From the NCBI GenBank assembly GCA_029261055.1, contig JAJDCA010000015.1, forward strand, positions 19,998-83,997: 64,000 nucleotides of DNA. Direction: 5' to 3'. The translations under genes and the position numbers were made by a program. The notes below the pieces were generated by a model that worked only from the letters and a program-made list of their open reading frames with translations, was not told the origin of the DNA and did not search any database. The stretch is from Candidatus Omnitrophota bacterium (GTDB lineage Bacteria > Omnitrophota > Gorgyraeia > Zapsychrales > Zapsychraceae). Position 1 is the stretch's first letter. Each line of letters starts with the position of its first letter. This document shows, piece by piece, positions 27,781 to 37,300 of this stretch.

Positions 27781-28128
27781 TTAAAACTGCATACCCAGCT
27801 TAATACCGGCTTCGGTGGATTCATTTTCAGGTTCAAGGCCGGTAACGACGTATACAGAGGATAAGGCTGTAGAAAGTTCAGAATCGTCAATATGCCAAAA
27901 ACGAATAAAGGCCTCTATTGACCAATTAAACTGATCTCCTAAACGGACGAGCTCAATAGCTCCTCGAGCACCATAACCTTCATTTTGAGTATTCTCAAGA
28001 TCCGGAAATAAACTTGAAGCATCGGAGAGGTGCCTGCTTTTTTTCTTATTCAATTCATTTTGTGAGAAACGGTACGTTTTATTTGTATATCGCTTTTTTC
28101 CTGTGGGTGTATTTATTTTATTGTGCAT
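27781..28128 (-). pseudogene. Probable C-terminal remnant of an outer-membrane beta-barrel protein.
   Basis: It ends ...AGIKLGMQF, a beta-barrel terminal signature with a C-terminal Phe. There is no signal peptide. It is a short ORF at the low-GC edge of the Rhs island. Confidence 0.3.
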
Positions 28129-28244: not shown

Positions 28245-28853
28245 TCATGGGTTGGATACACTGTCTGTATTTTTAAAATTAAATTGACTAATATTGACTT
28301 TATTTGATAAGTTTTTATCAATATTCTTTTTTCTTAATTTAATGTTAACCGCAGAGTCTGTTAAATCCTTATAATTCGGATGCTCAGGCCCTTCTAATAG
28401 ATGTTTTCGACTATTATTCTTGTCCTCATCAAAATATCGATTGTTTTTTATTAAAATATCCTCAGTCGAAGTGTTTAGAAGACTGTCATTCAAAGATAAA
28501 CGATTAGGGGTATATATTTTCAACCAACACAAATAAACTATAAGAATCAATATAAGTGGAAAAGCCAAATAATTTCGTCTATATAAAAAAACTGCAATAA
28601 TCAATAACCAAAATCCCATAATAATTGGAATTACAAAAGAAAGTTTGTATTCTATGTCTGCAATCCTTGATATATCATCATTGAAATAACTTTCGCTGAC
28701 TAACTGATTTACATAATTATTTATAATTTTTTCTTTATGAAAAACAATGTATAACCCCTTATACATCATTATCAAAGCCCCACATAAAAAAAGGACGGTT
28801 AAAATGATAAATATTTTTTTTACTTTTAGATTTTTATCTCTTTCAATTATCAT
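28245..28853 (-). CDS. Small very AT-rich membrane protein. Candidate immunity protein for the orphan Rhs C-terminal toxin.
   Basis: 202 aa with 3-4 TM helices. It lies 86 bp downstream of the orphan toxin ORF and is strikingly lower in GC than its neighbours. Confidence 0.4.
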   Translation of the reverse strand: MIIERDKNLKVKKIFIILTVLFLCGALIMMYKGLYIVFHKEKIINNYVNQLVSESYFNDDISRIADIEYKLSFVIPIIMGFWLLIIAVFLYRRNYLAFPLILILIVYLCWLKIYTPNRLSLNDSLLNTSTEDILIKNNRYFDEDKNNSRKHLLEGPEHPNYKDLTDSAVNIKLRKKNIDKNLSNKVNISQFNFKNTDSVSNP

Positions 28854-28939
28854 TGCTTATTCCTTTTTACTTAAACCTTCTTCTGATGTTTAAAACTCCA
28901 AGGCTCAAAAAATCGATGCGATAATTTAATAGCATAACT

Positions 28940-30382
28940 TTATTGACCATAAATATAGTTTGTAGTGTTGGTAATATCCTCAAAAAATCCTAATATATTC
29001 ATCCTATTTACTATTGTAGGATCATGGTGGATAATATTAATTTGTCTATAAGACTTAGGAACTATTACATTTACTGTTAAAACATTTCTATTGACTATTG
29101 AAACATGAGTATCTCCTGGTTCTCCAGTAAGATGATCCATAAAATAAAACTCTCTTGTAAATGTTTCAGTTTTTAAATATGGAACAATTTGTTCTGTCAT
29201 CTCAGGAAATCTAAAATTGATCTGTTCCGCTAATATACCATCAACTTCCTTCCCATTCAATCTCACATAAGCATCAACTTTAGACACAAATTCCTCTGGA
29301 TTATTTGAACTATTTGCAGACTGAAGAATCTCTGTTCTTCCAACTTTGCCTTCTTTAGCAGCTTTAGCAAGACGAGCAGATTCTATTTTGTTTGCAGCTG
29401 CTTGGATCCCTGTTACAGCCAAATACCCTGCCGCTGCAAAAATAGCTCCTTGCCCAGCACCAGCACCAAAACTTCCTCCCGTTAATACAGAACCGACACC
29501 TCCTGCAACAGCCCCACTCGCCGCTGCTCCAATAAATCCTCCAAGTGAGCCTCCGACTAAATCTCCTATACCGGCACCAATACTTGCTGTTAATATGCCT
29601 ATACCTGCAGATTTTGCAAAATCACCCCAACTCCCATCATACAGCATTGTATTGTAAGCCGCGCTAGCTATAGCACCCAAAACCGGATTAATAAACGATA
29701 ATGTAATACCTATAACGACACCTTTGTACTTATCAGGAACAAAAGGTAATAATATTTTACCAGCAATTTTAAAGAGCTTCTTCCAAAACCCAAAACCATC
29801 GGGGTCAATATTATTTACAGGGTTATTTCCTGCGTAGTGATATCTATTGAACGTAATTGAACTAGTAGAATTCTGTACTGTAGGGTCAGCCGTAATAAAT
29901 CTACCAAGAGACGGATCATAATACCTCGCCCCATAGTAATAGAGCCCCGTCTCTTCATCCAATGGTTTGCCGGTGAAATAGTAGTTGGCGACTGACTCAC
30001 ATGAGGGATCGTCAATTGGGCAGTATTTATCTTGTTTTGAATACCCCCCGAATGGCTTGTATTCGTAGACTTCCCTCTTAGCGCCTGTATCATCCGTTAA
30101 GACATTCGTTCCACCGAGGTGGTCGTTGTGATAATAAAGGATCTTATCACCTGACACTGAGGCAATACGTGTACCGCCAAAGAAAATATAATTCGTCGAG
30201 CGACCGTTGGTTTCTTCGTACAAGGAACCGACATAAATTGTTTCAGTAACCGTCGTACTACTGGAACTGGTACTCCCGCTATCAAAGAACATTTTATTAT
30301 GGACCAAATACCCACCCGCGAAATAATTGTGATGTTGGTCGACTTCGATATTATACACACGCACAGCAGGCTGTTGATACAT
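28940..30382 (-). CDS. Orphan Rhs C-terminal cassette: the last ~15 residues of a Hint domain, then the Rhs core end (DPDGF), a glycine-zipper segment and a unique ~130-aa C-terminal toxin tip.
   Basis: AVRVYNIEVDQHHNYFAGGYLVHNK...YYHNDHLGGTNVLTDD...YYGARYYDPSLGRFITADP...NNIDPDGF is homologous to the corresponding segment of the 2,903-aa Rhs protein at about 75% nucleotide identity. The C-terminal 130 aa are unrelated. Confidence 0.75.
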   Translation of the reverse strand: MYQQPAVRVYNIEVDQHHNYFAGGYLVHNKMFFDSGSTSSSSTTVTETIYVGSLYEETNGRSTNYIFFGGTRIASVSGDKILYYHNDHLGGTNVLTDDTGAKREVYEYKPFGGYSKQDKYCPIDDPSCESVANYYFTGKPLDEETGLYYYGARYYDPSLGRFITADPTVQNSTSSITFNRYHYAGNNPVNNIDPDGFGFWKKLFKIAGKILLPFVPDKYKGVVIGITLSFINPVLGAIASAAYNTMLYDGSWGDFAKSAGIGILTASIGAGIGDLVGGSLGGFIGAAASGAVAGGVGSVLTGGSFGAGAGQGAIFAAAGYLAVTGIQAAANKIESARLAKAAKEGKVGRTEILQSANSSNNPEEFVSKVDAYVRLNGKEVDGILAEQINFRFPEMTEQIVPYLKTETFTREFYFMDHLTGEPGDTHVSIVNRNVLTVNVIVPKSYRQINIIHHDPTIVNRMNILGFFEDITNTTNYIYGQ

Positions 30383-30467
30383 CTAAACCTTTACCTTGTT
30401 CAATTTCAACTTCTCGTAATTTAATGATGATTTCTTCCGGCTTGTACCTTTTTCCCATTTTTAACCC
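30383..30467 (-). mobile_element. Remnant of an IS3-family OrfA N-terminus, out of frame and fused to the start of the orphan Rhs cassette.
   Basis: The minus-strand translation MGKRYKPEEIIIKLREVEIEQGKGL resembles an IS3/IS911-type OrfA start. It abuts the exact point where homology to the main Rhs gene begins. Confidence 0.4.
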
Positions 30468-30835
30468 CTTTCTGTTGCCTCATTCTATCACAAAAAGTGG
30501 ATCAACTTCTGGGGGGTGGGTCAGGGCCTCGTTTAGACACGGGACTATCATTAATTATATTTAAAACAATTTTCTTCTGATTCTTAATCAAGAATAATCC
30601 TAATACAAAAAATACTAAAAATAAAAATATATGTTTCATAATTAAACGCGTAACACTTACTTATCATAATATACATTATGATAAGTCAATTCTTTGACAA
30701 CCAATATTATCGTATTTTTAAATTAGTCAGGTGGGAATTCACATTACCAAATTCTCATTATAACGAAAAAAGTGTATCTTAACCTTTTCCAAAATACAGT
30801 CTTAATTCGGTAATGGGACTTTTTTGGGGATAATT

Positions 30836-31336
30836 CTACACACCTTTAATTTGGCTTCCATTACGATCAGAATTAAACGCGTAACATTTAGCAAAAGAAC
30901 GTGTAATTAAAAATAACGAAAAACCAAATATCAGCACTTCAAAATAAGGTATATACTGCATTGATGAAGTATCAATAATATGAACGTTGCTTTCCCTTAG
31001 ATTTGCAGGAATTTCAGGGAGAAGGAAATAATTAATCCAAAAGATAACGACACTCCAAATTGAAAAAATTAACTTCAAAATTAAGGCCCATTTTAGTACA
31101 AGTGAACTCCAGGTTCGGCTAAAGAGCAAACCCATTCCACCAAGAATAAAGAGCATTGGAATTATCGCGGAATAAATAATACTCGCCATTTGAAAATTCC
31201 ATCCATGCAAATTAATAAGACTTTTTAAATTTGAAAAAATAAAAATTAAAGAATGATAATTTTCTTTGAATTGGACAACGCCATAGAGTAACGCTAACAT
31301 GGAAAAAATTTTTATTAATTTTATTTTTTTAACCAT
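30836..31336 (-). CDS. Small multi-TM membrane protein. Candidate immunity protein for the main Rhs C-terminal toxin.
   Basis: 166 aa with 4 TM segments. Its start is 10 bp downstream of the Rhs stop. AT-rich. Confidence 0.45.
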   Translation of the reverse strand: MVKKIKLIKIFSMLALLYGVVQFKENYHSLIFIFSNLKSLINLHGWNFQMASIIYSAIIPMLFILGGMGLLFSRTWSSLVLKWALILKLIFSIWSVVIFWINYFLLPEIPANLRESNVHIIDTSSMQYIPYFEVLIFGFSLFLITRSFAKCYAFNSDRNGSQIKGV

Positions 31337-31345
31337 AAAGACTCC

Positions 31346-34300
31346 TTATCTCTGCAACACACGCCCTCCTAGAAGACGCCCTTCAGTTATCGGAGATGTT
31401 CGCTGTGAAATATTTCCATTTCTAAAATTTGTTTGCTGAATCCATGCTGATCCTACATCTAATTCATTCCATGTCCTAGTAAAACTTTTTGTATTACCAA
31501 AATATGTTTTAAAATGGCCATTTTGTCTATATGTAGTTTCTCTGTGGTATTCTGCACGATATATTCCAGCGCTCAATGATGTTAATCCGGGGGCTTGAAT
31601 TGTCCCAACATTTTTCCAATTTCCGACTTTAACTGTTTGAATGTGAGAATCTCCAACCCAACTGCCGATGACATTATAAAATTTATGTACAATCAATTCA
31701 TATTTTTTATTCAAATACCCTCCAGGATGAAATGAATCATTTGCAACAAATCCTATGGCGGCTGATACACCACCTAATTTTGCTCCGTCTCCAAAATTAC
31801 CTCCGGTTACTGAGGAAAGGCTTCCACCGATAACGGCCCCTACAATCGAACGACGAGCAAAATTTCCTGAAAATTGAGAAAAAGTATCATTAGTCGTTGT
31901 TTGTAGAAATGGTATCCTTTGCCCGGCTAATTGCGCAACCCCTGCACTCACTCCGCCTATTAAGGCGCTTATTCCTGGGTCGCCACCTAAAATTGTTGTA
32001 TTAATCCCTCCTGATATTGCGCCGCCTATCGTATGCGCAGAAATCTGGGCTGAGCCACTTAATCCTAAATCACCTATGCCTCCAAATATCAACCCACTTA
32101 TAGCTCCCGTTAGAAATCCATCTCCTATATCCCCACCTGTTGCCGCAGCTGTGGCGCCTCCAATGAGAGATCCAAAGAATGCACTTTTAAATAAACCCGC
32201 AAAAAAACTAAAGAGTGCAAAGTTTCCACTGGGATCAACCAAATTAATCGGATTATTATGGACGTAAGTATACCTATTAAATGTTTGTGGATTTTCAGGA
32301 TACGGCACAATTGTATCTGACGTTATAAATCTTCCAATAGATGGATCGTAATAGCGGGCTCCGTAGTAATATAACCCTGCTTCATCGTCGAAGGGTTTCC
32401 CGGTAAAATAGTACAACGCTGTTTCCTGATCATTACCATATTTTTCATGTGTGGCAAAACCACCGTATGGTAGGTACTCGATGAGTTCCTTCTTAGTTCC
32501 TGTATCATCTGTGAGAATATTGGTGCCGCCTAAATGGTCGGAGTGGTAGTATAAAACTTTGTTCCAGGAAACAGAGGCAATTCTTGTATCACCAAGAAAG
32601 ATGTATTGGATTGGACGATTATTGGTTTCCTCGTACATCGTTCCGATATAGATGGTTTCGGTCGTTGTGCTTGTGTCATTTGAAGTCATGTTAAAGAATG
32701 ACATTTTGTTGTGGACAAGATACCCACCGGCAAAGTAGTTGTGATGCTGGTCGACTTCGATGTTATATACCCTTACCGCGGATTGTGTGGTAATTTTTTC
32801 GATTTTTTCAATACTCGCATCCGTTAGATCTAGGCTCAGAAGTTTATCTTCAACAGATAGCTTGCCAATTTCACGCCATTCTCCTTGTGAATAGAATTGG
32901 TGATTGTCCGTCACACGTAAAGTATCATTAATGATTAAATATTCATCAGCAAATTCTCCATTAAAGAAATTCGTCACTGTTGATATAACCTTCTCTCCTG
33001 TACGCTCATTAAAACTCATAACAGCATCACCGATTTGTATCTCTTCAATCGATTTTGTACGCCCATCCGCCATCAAAACAGGTGTTCCTGCTAGAAAACA
33101 CGTGTTATTTCCTGATGGTGTTCCATGCCCGACACCATTTTCAAATGTTACTTTCTTCGTACGTCCTCCATCACCATCATATTTATATTGGGCAATAAGC
33201 ACCCCTGCCTTTTTTACTTCTGTCAGAAGGTTTCCAATATCATAGGTATAATTGATACTGACACCATTTTTAATCTTTGCTGTCATATTACCGTTGGCAT
33301 CATAGGTATAGATCTCGGTGGTGGCACCATCCGTCCGCGATGTCACTGCATGCGGGCCAGCACTGTTTTGACCGTAGGTATATGTAAACCCATCTTTCTG
33401 AATAATATTCCCGATGGTATCATAGGAATACGTCTTGGTGCCGTACGCTTCCCCTACGGCTTGCGTCAAACGACTTAAGGCGTCGTATTGGAAATTTTGT
33501 GTGGCCGTATGGATATTATCAACAATAGACCCCACATTACCCACTGCATCATAAGTATATGAAAAATCTTGTAAAACGCTATTATCTGTACTACTTGTTT
33601 TTACTTGTAGTAACCGTAAATTTAATGGATCGTAGGTATTGCTGGTTATGACACCATTGCCATATTCAATTTGTGTGATCTGCCCATTAACATTATATTT
33701 TATATTTCTTACAAATGAAGTTGATGCAATAGTTCCTGCCACTACATCAATATTTACTACAGCCACATTACTATCTAATTTTCCATCGTTTACCTTAAAA
33801 ATAAAATTATCTTTACCAAGATAATCTACATTTGGTGTATACATTAATTCGGGCGCTGTTCCTGATATTTTGCCATTCGTTGGGAATGTTACAATACTAT
33901 ATGTTAATACATCGTTATCTGCATCATTGCCAGTTAATGTAATAGGTAAAGTACCATTCATATTAATGGTTAAACTGCTTTGATCATTAGCGACTGGAGG
34001 CTCATTGGTTTGAGGTGGACTTACTAATTGAATTATGTCAGAAATTTCACTGGAGCTTAGAGCATCATTGTATACACGCACATCGTCAATACTGCCTTTA
34101 AAATAAATTCCATTACGTCTACCATTAAAAATATCTGCTTCTGAACCATCGCCAATATAGCCATACCGAGTTACGCCGTTCCCAAGTTTCACATTAGTGC
34201 TATAAGCATCACTTTGACTGTCTAGTACACCATCAACATAAATCTTTTTATCATTAACTTGACTAGCATCAAACACCCCGCACACATGATGCCATTGGCC

Positions 34301-37300
34301 GTCATCGACTCGGACGGAACTCGCCATATCATGAATCGCACTTCCCTCACCTCGTGTATCCCAAGAGATTTTACCGATATCTTCTGGTGCATTATGAAAG
34401 TTAATCCCCAATGACCAATACTCACTTCGATCATAATCTACTATTGTTTGTCGTGAAGAAGAACTTGTATTGATCCACGCACAGGTTGTTATTTTATTAA
34501 TTTCCCCAGCAACATTGTAACTTAGATTATTTATCGCTACATAATCGTTCGTGCCATCAAAATCTAATCCATTATTAATTTTTCCAGAAACCCAAGCAGC
34601 ATTCGTCATATTAAACAACGTGCCATTATTTCCATTTCCTGTTGCATCATTAGCATTATTCCCACTTGTTTCATCAAAATTCCAATGACCTATGAATGTA
34701 TTAATTGATGTAGTTGTTAATACATCTAATCTGATTTTTACTACATTACTATCTGCCGTGCCATCATTCACCTTAAATGTAAAACTGTCTGCTCCTACAT
34801 AATTCAAATTTGAACTATATATTAAATTTGGAGCTACTCCTGATAAACTTCCATTCGTTGGTTGAGTTATTACAACATACGTTAATGTATCTCCATCTGC
34901 ATCACCACCTGTTAGTGTTATAGCTAAATCTGTGCCTTGATTGGTTGTCAATCCATTCTGACTATTTGCCGTTGGCGCTGTATTATCTGGTGACACTATT
35001 TTAAAGCTCACCGCTGTTTCTGATTTAAAAGAATCGTTAAAAAGTATTCTCACTTCGTAATCCCCGGGAGGTAATCCAGAGTCAAATGCAATTCTCCCAT
35101 TGATAATTCCTGTGGTGCCGGTTTTTGTTCCATCTGTATAATACCATCCCAAGTTACTAGTATTCGCTGATCCAGCAGAAAACAACCCTATCCAGTCACT
35201 TGAATTCGCTAAAGCATTAAAAAAAGTCACTGTGATGGCCTCATTAGGGGCATATGTAGTTTTATTGATAAAAAGTAATGGCGGGTTTGCTCCAACGATA
35301 AAAGATTCTTTTGATTCTACTTCAAAAGAATTATTAGAAAACATTCTTGTCTCATATACACCATCAACGTTTAATCCATTATTAATTTTCGTAGAAACCT
35401 GATCAGTATTCGTCATATTAAACAACGTACCATTATTCCCATTTCCTGTCGTATCGGCAGCATTGTTCCCACTTGTTTCATCGATTTGTCTCTGAGCAAT
35501 GTAATCCTCTATGCTAGAAGGTGGTATGATATTATCACTAGGCCCAAAAGATGGAATATATCCAGGTGCAGCATTGAAAATATTACGATTTACAATGCGA
35601 AGATTATCCATACTCCCATTTAAATTTTCATAACTACCTCCATGAGGCCCTTCCCCAATGTAAAGCCCTCCCATATAATTAAACGTATTTTCAGTCTGCC
35701 GATACCCCGTCTGTTTACCATCTAAATAAAGTCCATATTTATCCCCCACTTTAACTAAAGCTACATGATGCCATTCATTATCAGTAATTTTGCCACCTTG
35801 TACGGAAATAATACGGTTAAAATTTATTTCTGCAGAAAATTCTAATTTATCGCGGTGCCCCAATTGCCATTCATTTGAACTATTAGATTTATGAACCACA
35901 TAATAATTTGGACTTACAAGGTCTCTATGCTTAACCCAGAGGTCAATGGTCCAGTCTTGAATGGGTGATGCAACAATATCCCAGTCAGGACTATCATCAA
36001 TGTGTAGAAAAGTTTTACTATTAAATGAAAGGCTAGTGCCTGAGAATTTTCCATCTGTAAAATCTAATTCTGGATTCTTATGCGGTATTATTGTGTGCCT
36101 CTTAGATGTATCCGTAAGCGCTGCGTCTATATTTTGCCCATCAAAAAGTAAAAGCAATTTTGTTTCTGGAAACAAAGGAACGGGTGGAGGTTGCGGGGTA
36201 GCATTTCTTTGATTCGAAGTTGGACCATCCACTTGCCCATTATATGCGGAAACCACAAAATAATACGTTGTCCCATTATTTACTTCAGCAACAACAAAAT
36301 TCGTTGTATTCCCAACATCGATTATATTTATCTTATTATTCTCAGAAGTTCCGTATTTAATTTTATAGCCTTCTGCATTATTGACACTGGTCCAACCCAA
36401 GCTTATATTTTTATCCCTACCAACAGAAACATTCAATGTTGGTGCATCTAAAACTATTGTGTTTACTTCATTTGAATTTTGACTTTCTGTTTGAATATCA
36501 TACGCTATAACTACAAAATAGTACGTAAGTCCGCCACTTAACCCAGTAACATTAAAGCTATGGACATTACCTACATCAATTATTTTTATATAACTTCCTT
36601 TGGAGGTTCCGTATTTAATTTTATAGCCTTCTGCATTATCGACACTGGTCCAATCTAAGCTAACGCCCTGATTTTCTACAACTACGGTATTCAAAACTGG
36701 AGGATCTATTATAGGTGGTGCTGGTATGATTTGTTGATTAGAAATTTCTACTACCTGTCCCGCAGCATTATATCCATAATACATATTTTTTGTATTTGGA
36801 TACTGTATTTTTACAATCGAATTTAGTGCATCATAATCTCGTTGGACATTATAAGCCTGATTATTAATTTTTTTTATTGATTGAATTTCTCTCCCCAAAG
36901 GATCATATATAAACTGAACATCACCTTTAGTATAATCGGCTTGTGTTAACTTTCCTTTTGAATGAGACACAGATGCATCATCATAGGTATAATTAACATC
37001 CAGATCTCCTCCATCCGTCTTATTTACAAGGCGATTTAAAGCATCGTAGGTAAATGTAATCTTTTGTCCTTTGGCGTCCATTTGTTCAATAAGGTTGCCG
37101 TTAAGATCATACTCGTACGTCCAAATCCCCATGTCTGGATCATCCATTTTTATTTTACGCCCAAGTTTGTCATATGTAATGTTGGTCGTATTACCCTGTT
37201 GATCTTGTGTTTGGATTAAATTACCAGAGATATCATAGGTATACTGTGTGGTCGCATAGAGAGTAAAAGGTTCCATGGGATAAAAATTTGAATCACGCCC

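Follow-up and report, generated by a model that had tools for sequence, protein, structure and literature searches.

An orphan Rhs cassette in the window, as we call the whole 64,000-nt stretch of DNA analysed here, is joined at its 5' end to a remnant of an IS3-family insertion sequence (IS). With a probability of roughly 0.7, we consider this joint to be a scar left when the DNA of a decaying Rhs toxin locus broke and was rejoined without homology, in the simplest case by a deletion. The joint was placed by codon-by-codon comparison with the main Rhs gene of the locus and with other copies of the IS. Eight nucleotides (CAGCCTGC, 30366..30373, minus strand) fit both partners, reading as Ala-Cys of the IS orfA and as Gln-Pro-Ala in the Rhs frame, so the joint is located only to within these 8 nt. 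Between 30373 and 30360, sliding identity to the main gene climbed from background to 65–90%.

A preliminary description of this DNA had held that the orphan is homologous to the main gene only from Q-x-AVRVYNIEVDQHHNYFAGGYLVHNK onward (main residue 2425/2427), and this was borne out. Relaxed tblastn of main-gene residues 2250–2460 against 30300..30900 found no Rhs homology upstream of 30382 in any frame; the single upstream extension that it returned contains a stop codon and was rejected as spurious. Everything upstream of the joint is IS sequence, and the start of homology is therefore a mere truncation point, which carries no independent evidence of a recombination site. The same description had set the breakpoint exactly at the end of the HINT domain and at an IS scar. 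The joint does lie in the conserved C-terminal HINT block and abuts an IS, but the cassette starts inside the HINT domain rather than at its end.

The NCBI contig and a Logan contig, two assemblies probably built from the same reads (SRR15505515), have this joint in common. When related genomes were searched for the same tip or breakpoint, only this genome and its Logan twin were found; the best non-self match had 50% identity over 48% of the query.

The IS3-family remnant

The IS part of the fusion is a left end of 158 bp (30366..30523, minus strand) that contains the terminal inverted repeat (TGACCCACCCCCC...), a 5' leader with a ribosome-binding site, and orfA codons 1–31. The frame opened by the ATG at 30458 translates as MGKRYKPEEIIIKLREVEIEQGKGLDVSTACCACV* and stops at 30351. 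It forms a truncated orfA' of 35 codons plus stop (30351..30458, minus strand), in which codons 32–35 (CACV) and the stop come from Rhs-derived DNA. This frame (MGKRYKPEEIIIKLREVEIEQGKGL) and that of the cassette ATG at 30382 are offset by one base.

The 31–35-aa stub peptide itself is too short to have given a match in Pfam or NCBIfam. By tblastn against plasmids it matched 165 records, and every annotated feature under a match was an IS3-family transposase (best matches ~62% identical over 29–31 residues). Padded with X, as the query is so short, the peptide gave a single match among 5.8 billion proteins, P0121 (84% identity over 31 aa, E = 6e-9), which carries PF01527. For HTH_Tnp_1, only orfA codons 1–31 are present in the stub, and its closest relatives match PF01527 (P0121; the orfA of copy L009, E = 4.5e-17). 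The minus-strand peptide is thus the start of an IS3 OrfA out of frame with the cassette, as the preliminary description had proposed. The IS piece that it had noted upstream of 30382 is real but longer than was thought, extending over orfA codons 1–31 down to 30366 and taking in the cassette ATG.

A 22-nt leader motif common to the window and the contig of P0121 led to nine further copies of the IS in genome and metagenome collections. All ten copies start with TG[AG]CC, and since the nine others begin there, the left end of the window copy is at 30523. Over its 158 bp the stub was 80–82% identical to full copies. Those copies (L008, L009, L011 and L016) continue with ...ACRQVG(I/V)... into an orfA of 91 aa that matches PF01527, after which come an orfB carrying rve and rve_3 and, at ~1236–1275 bp, a right repeat that matches the left one, for a length of ~1.24 kb. 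The window copy stops matching after GCC TGC (orfA codon 31, 30366), and P0121, L008 and L009 diverge from it right there.

Compared with IS3-family elements (orfA with HTH_Tnp_1, frameshifted orfB with an rve DDE domain, TG...CA ends), the stub is alike in its TGACC terminal start, and its leader and first 31 orfA codons match relatives that have a PF01527 orfA and an rve/rve_3 orfB. Unlike complete elements, it holds only 13% of the sequence, without orfB, right end or target duplication; it is a remnant, not an IS, and cannot move. Its terminal repeats recall the IS407 group, which may be its subgroup. The stub was also considered as a mobile miniature element and rejected as such: the DNA on its two sides does not form continuous Rhs sequence, and the other copies are mostly complete or cut off by the end of a contig (L012–L015 all end inside this IS).

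No second copy of this IS was found within the window. An intact IS near 41.6 kb had been suggested as the counterpart of the stub, which did not hold. What lies at 40337..41745 (minus strand), ~280 bp upstream of where the main Rhs gene starts, is another IS3-like element, distinct from the stub, and neither blastn nor tblastn found similarity between the two (best 26% over 27 aa, E = 23). Its orfA and orfB overlap, with an A-run (AAAAAAAAAG) near 41375 at the expected frameshift site, and its GC content of 45–48% is above that of its surroundings; against NF033516 it scored 107 bits, below the cut-off.

Two other remnants of the stub's IS family were seen. The one in a Planctomycetales genome (L010:4957-5125) is truncated after orfA codon 32, 3–4 nt from the window break at codon 31, and is likewise fused to the 3' part of an unrelated ORF, which had no Pfam or PDB match. 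A third remnant (L004) breaks ~60 nt further on. By a rough estimate from two cases only, the chance of two random breaks falling as close together as those of L010 and the window in a 1.24-kb element is ~1%. The pair may mark a breakage hot spot in this IS family or may be a coincidence.

The orphan cassette and the main Rhs gene

Gene calls and the ORF list gave the minus-strand order main Rhs gene, 154–166-aa ORF, IS3 stub, cassette, 202-aa ORF. The main gene (31346..40057, minus strand) encodes 2903 aa with FG-GAP, TcdB_toxin_midN, RHS repeats, fn3, LamG, Ig-like, a HINT insertion, the Rhs core and a tip, as assigned with Pfam and NCBIfam. The 154–166-aa ORF immediately 3' of it (30836..31336, minus strand) is its presumed immunity gene; it matched no family in Pfam or NCBIfam. 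The cassette ORF (28940..30382, minus strand) lies downstream of the main gene in the same orientation, has its own small ORF 3', and is open for 480 codons without interruption. Its 480-aa product is without the N-terminal delivery and shell region of the 2903-aa main protein, to which it is homologous from residue 2425. Because the IS-derived stretch reaches 30366, the cassette ATG at 30382 sits in IS DNA and is a start by accident, taken from sequence that the IS reads in another frame, which makes the ORF as annotated chimeric. The significance of the feature is mainly one of annotation, in that a 480-aa "gene" is a chimera that takes its start codon from a dead IS.

The Rhs-derived part begins with the C-terminal 24 codons of a HINT (intein-like) domain (AVRVYNIEVDQHHNYFAGGYLVHN, 30296..30367, minus strand), which matched the intein C-terminal region model TIGR01443 at cassette residues 9–29 with scores above the model cut-off. 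Of the ~131 HINT residues (Cys2320..Asn2450 in the main protein), the cassette keeps the last 24–26. The catalytic N-terminal part, with Cys1 and the block A/B residues, is missing, as the cassette starts 107 residues past the position of Cys1, and the C-terminal His-Asn is kept (LVHN in both the orphan and the main gene). The next in-frame Met of the cassette, Met31 (30292), stands two residues past the HINT His-Asn (HN-K-M).

A linker and the Rhs repeat-associated core follow (29795..30295, minus strand; TIGR03696, E = 6.9e-24, residues 108–196), ending in ...NNIDPDG(F) with the DPxG motif. The variable C-terminal tip (28940..29794, minus strand) consists of a Gly-rich membrane-like stretch and then ~160 aa, the presumed toxin; Pfam and PDB searches with the tip gave no match, and its GC content is low (26–30%). 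From its position and orientation 86 nt 3' of the cassette, the 202-aa ORF (28245..28853, minus strand) is presumed to be the cognate immunity gene. No family or structure match was obtained for it, and Pfam returned weak membrane-protein matches only. Both toxin tips and their downstream ORFs have GC contents of 26–33% (28400–29400 and 30800–31800) against a window average of 39%, which is typical of exchanged toxin-immunity cassettes.

In blastn, 30358..29891 of the orphan aligned to 32770..32321 of the main gene with 67% identity, lower than the ~75% first put forward. Protein-guided alignment resolved this into segments. The 24 residues of the HINT tail are identical to main residues 2427–2450 (24/24) at 79% nucleotide identity. 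The linker and core are 61% identical in protein and 62% in DNA, the Gly-rich start of the tip 38% and 48%, and the last ~160 residues of the tip are unrelated at both levels. Across the 29 codons from Q3 to M31 of the orphan, 14 differences were synonymous and 2 non-synonymous. Both of the latter precede AVRVY, and inside the HINT tail all differing codons are synonymous. This preponderance of synonymous differences indicates that the copies diverged anciently while the motif was under purifying selection, in agreement with the earlier view that the orphan is not a recent duplicate. Orphan and main gene share no exact run longer than 14 nt. For exchange by RecA to be efficient, ~20–30 nt or more are required, and we judge 14 nt too short for efficient homologous exchange.

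The complete HINT domain of the main gene (Cys2320..Asn2450, then Lys; 32708..33100, minus strand) matched PF07591 (PT-HINT, E = 2.8e-15) and has the motifs CFLAGTPV... and TDNH. It may resemble the "A-type bacterial intein-like" domains of Amitai, Dassa and Pietrokovski. It forms a ~130-residue insertion in the Rhs shell, with YDGDGGRTKK before it and TxYVGSLYEE after it, and lies ~160 residues ahead of the DPxG cleavage motif; homologues that lack HINT run through the insertion site without a break. In each of the six HINT-bearing sequences that were examined, Lys and no Cys, Ser or Thr followed the terminal His-Asn, which indicates that this is not a canonical splicing intein.

RHS together with HINT has been listed for toxins with a TcdB/TcaC-type N-terminus, and HINT has been reported absent from type VI-delivered toxins (PMC3482391). 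The main gene is like the PT-HINT polymorphic toxins (PF07591; Zhang et al. 2012, PMC3482391) in combining RHS, HINT and a TcdB/TcaC-type N-terminal region, and in the presence of Cys1 and the terminal His-Asn. It is unlike them in that its HINT lies in the shell, upstream of the Rhs core and not directly before the toxin, and in the Lys after His-Asn. Rhs proteins with HINT inside the shell gain in this locus an example from a little-studied lineage: to judge by the names of the best homologues, the host is probably an Omnitrophota metagenome-assembled genome.

Breakpoints in related orphans and decay at the locus

It is established that orphan Rhs and CdiA cassettes occur with immunity genes of their own and that 3' cassettes are replaced on a constant gene body (PMC3150448, PMC3482391). 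The window cassette is like the orphan rhs-CT/rhsI modules of Enterobacteria (Poole et al. 2011, PMC3150448) and Salmonella (PMC7043789) in being 5'-truncated and in the same orientation as the full-length gene. It is like them also in carrying the core part up to DPxG, then a different tip and a small ORF, and in having a tip and immunity region with a GC content below that of the remainder. It is unlike them in retaining the HINT-domain tail. Orphan/main exchange in Salmonella relies on hundreds of bp of exact homology (PMC7043789), in contrast to the 67% nucleotide identity and the short exact runs in the window. Taken on its features, the cassette is an ordinary orphan Rhs cassette with an IS scar.

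The preliminary description had further proposed that alternative tips are captured at this exact position by an IS-mediated or homology-mediated process. Related orphans were cut at varied places, and capture at an exact position is thus not supported; the shortness of the exact matches and the position of the joint inside the IS also speak against it. At the other Rhs locus of the same genome, orphan P0003 starts at main-equivalent residue 2187 and has a complete HINT. P0014 starts in mid-HINT, at ~2342–2356. P0044, from another metagenome (L017:130-330), keeps the YDGDDGRVKK flank joined in frame to the last ~58 HINT residues, an in-frame internal deletion having taken out the catalytic N-terminal part. 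At a locus syntenic with that of the window, P0019 and P0035 begin at 2258/2270, without any HINT. Among 120 homologues, the position at which alignment began ranged from ~2100 to ~2550.

At the second Rhs locus of the same genome (L005:1-12850; GCA_029261065.1, contig JAJDCB010000002.1), a 2990-aa gene with HINT is accompanied by an immunity-like ORF, a Y1 transposase gene of IS200 type, several small ORFs, a barrel gene that is intact and a 735-aa orphan, whose first 21 residues are signal-peptide-like and not Rhs-derived.

The far side of the cassette-immunity pair is also damaged. A 115-aa ORF (27781..28128, minus strand) is a truncated outer-membrane beta-barrel gene that encodes the last 91 residues of a 277–317-aa protein, as established by blastp and by tblastn against L005 and L018. 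The gene is intact beside the Rhs orphans of L005, L007 and L018, and in the window it has lost ~190–225 N-terminal codons right after the immunity ORF of the cassette. This truncation is a second scar flanking the pair. In addition, several genes that separate the barrel gene from a response regulator/HD pair at the syntenic locus L018 are absent from the window. The locus is a typical polymorphic-toxin graveyard.

History of the joint and alternative explanations

We propose that the joint would have arisen in three steps. First, a small gene on the downstream side of the main Rhs-immunity pair would have received an IS3-family element of ~1.24 kb, whose left repeat at 30523 is intact to this day. 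Later, illegitimate recombination would have joined the interior of the IS (after orfA codon 31, 30366) to a second, long-diverged Rhs gene at a point 24–26 codons before its HINT end. This would have cost the IS ~87% of its length and the second Rhs gene all of its delivery and shell part, and would have left over the orphan module of HINT tail, Rhs core, different tip and probable immunity gene. Both this order of events and a deletion, in preference to an insertion of foreign DNA, appear to us the most plausible course. The present role of what remains would go no further than that of an immunity gene, a silent store of toxin or a toxin-antitoxin-like pair with weak expression.

The old divergence of the two copies, the scattered breakpoints of related orphans, the barrel truncation and the second IS3-like element beside the main gene all support a scar of breakage and rejoining. 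Several observations count against it. The ancestral arrangement was not recovered, and no other genome with the cassette tip was found, so deletion and replacement by incoming DNA are indistinguishable. An ORF open over 480 codons and a HINT tail without amino acid change fit recent truncation or continued selection better than long neglect. The L010 break, so near to that of the window, hints at a non-random breakage site, which a model of random deletion does not predict.

Among the other explanations, the one we regard as possible, though doubtful, is that the stub is functional, with the orfA promoter and leader expressing the cassette from ATG 30382 or from Met31, so that the orphan would be an internally expressed toxin-immunity (toxin-antitoxin-like) pair. 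The IS leader and its ribosome-binding site are intact, AAAGG lies 5 nt upstream of ATG 30382, and a promoter-like match (TCAACA-16-TATAAT, 10/12) spans the joint at 30350–30377 (minus strand). The long open frame is also in favour, and Salmonella orphans are expressed internally as toxin-antitoxin-like modules (PMC7043789). Against this, promoter-like sites are not enriched (21 compared with 16.3 ± 4.7 in shuffles), and a scan for promoters and terminators near the joint gave nothing above shuffled expectation. Such expression is in any case compatible with a scar of breakage and is no true alternative to it. We consider it unlikely that the C-terminal HINT block and the core act as a homology anchor by which stored cassettes replace the tip of a HINT-bearing Rhs gene through homologous recombination. 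The HINT tail is the best-conserved orphan/main stretch in DNA and is 83–86% identical to two HINT-bearing genes at the other Rhs locus of the genome. For polymorphic toxins, the accepted model is that cassettes are replaced at a conserved 5' body (PMC3482391), and three independent orphans (window, P0014 and P0044) keep the C-terminal HINT strands without the N-terminal part. Yet any orphan truncated upstream of the core would keep the HINT block by adjacency alone, the orphans of the syntenic locus lack HINT, breakpoints are scattered, and the longest exact match is far from the hundreds of bp of the Salmonella case (PMC7043789). Should tips prove to be exchanged preferentially at the HINT tail as anchor, an autoprocessing domain would be linked to the shuffling of cassettes; a fixed breakpoint is contradicted by the present data. 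We give a slighter chance still to the more specific idea that the repeated retention of these strands reflects a re-attachment handle for stored tips, acting as a DNA-level anchor among HINT-bearing Rhs alleles or, more speculatively, as a protein-level split-HINT C-fragment, and that, separately, the stub's IS family has a breakage hot spot at orfA codons 31–32 in two phyla.

Two further explanations fare worse. A transposase could have captured the cassette, the IS3 element having brought or rearranged it by one-ended transposition, adjacent deletion or as part of a composite transposon. An IS fragment does abut the cassette, another IS3-like element lies upstream of the main gene, the other Rhs locus has its Y1 transposase gene, and two remnants of the same IS family end 3–4 nt apart. 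The joint, though, is 158 bp inside the IS and not at its terminal repeat, which means that a transposase acting at the IS end did not make it. With a right end, a second copy and a target duplication all missing, and the upstream IS unrelated to the stub, we think this course very improbable. Of even lower probability, in our estimate, is a chimera made by the metagenome assembler at a repeated IS. The genome is metagenome-assembled and IS copies are often found at metagenome contig ends, as in L012–L015. The identical joint in two assemblies speaks against an artefact, as does the 150-kb contig, whose far side is collinear with a related genome. Moreover, the joint is not at a sequence common to two repeats, and a graph assembler would have had no reason to make it.

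Breakage and rejoining thus remains our preferred origin, and the DNA just upstream of the stub bears on its first step. The 5' part of a small ORF (MKHIFLFLVFFVLGLFLIKNQKK..., 30524..30639, minus strand) reads straight into the IS terminal repeat, as seen in the ORF list and the sequence, and is likely the insertion target of the IS. The ORF is unrelated to Rhs and had no homologue in L005, L007 or L018. A 24-nt direct repeat (30636–30659 and 30867–30890, 22/24 identical, core GTTACGCGTTTAAT) has one copy inside the 3' end of the main immunity ORF and the other just upstream of the interrupted small ORF, and it may mark an older cassette boundary. Next to it, in the intergenic DNA upstream of the small ORF, is a 28-nt near-perfect palindrome (30659–30686, 26/28; CTTATCATAAT...ATTATGATAAG).
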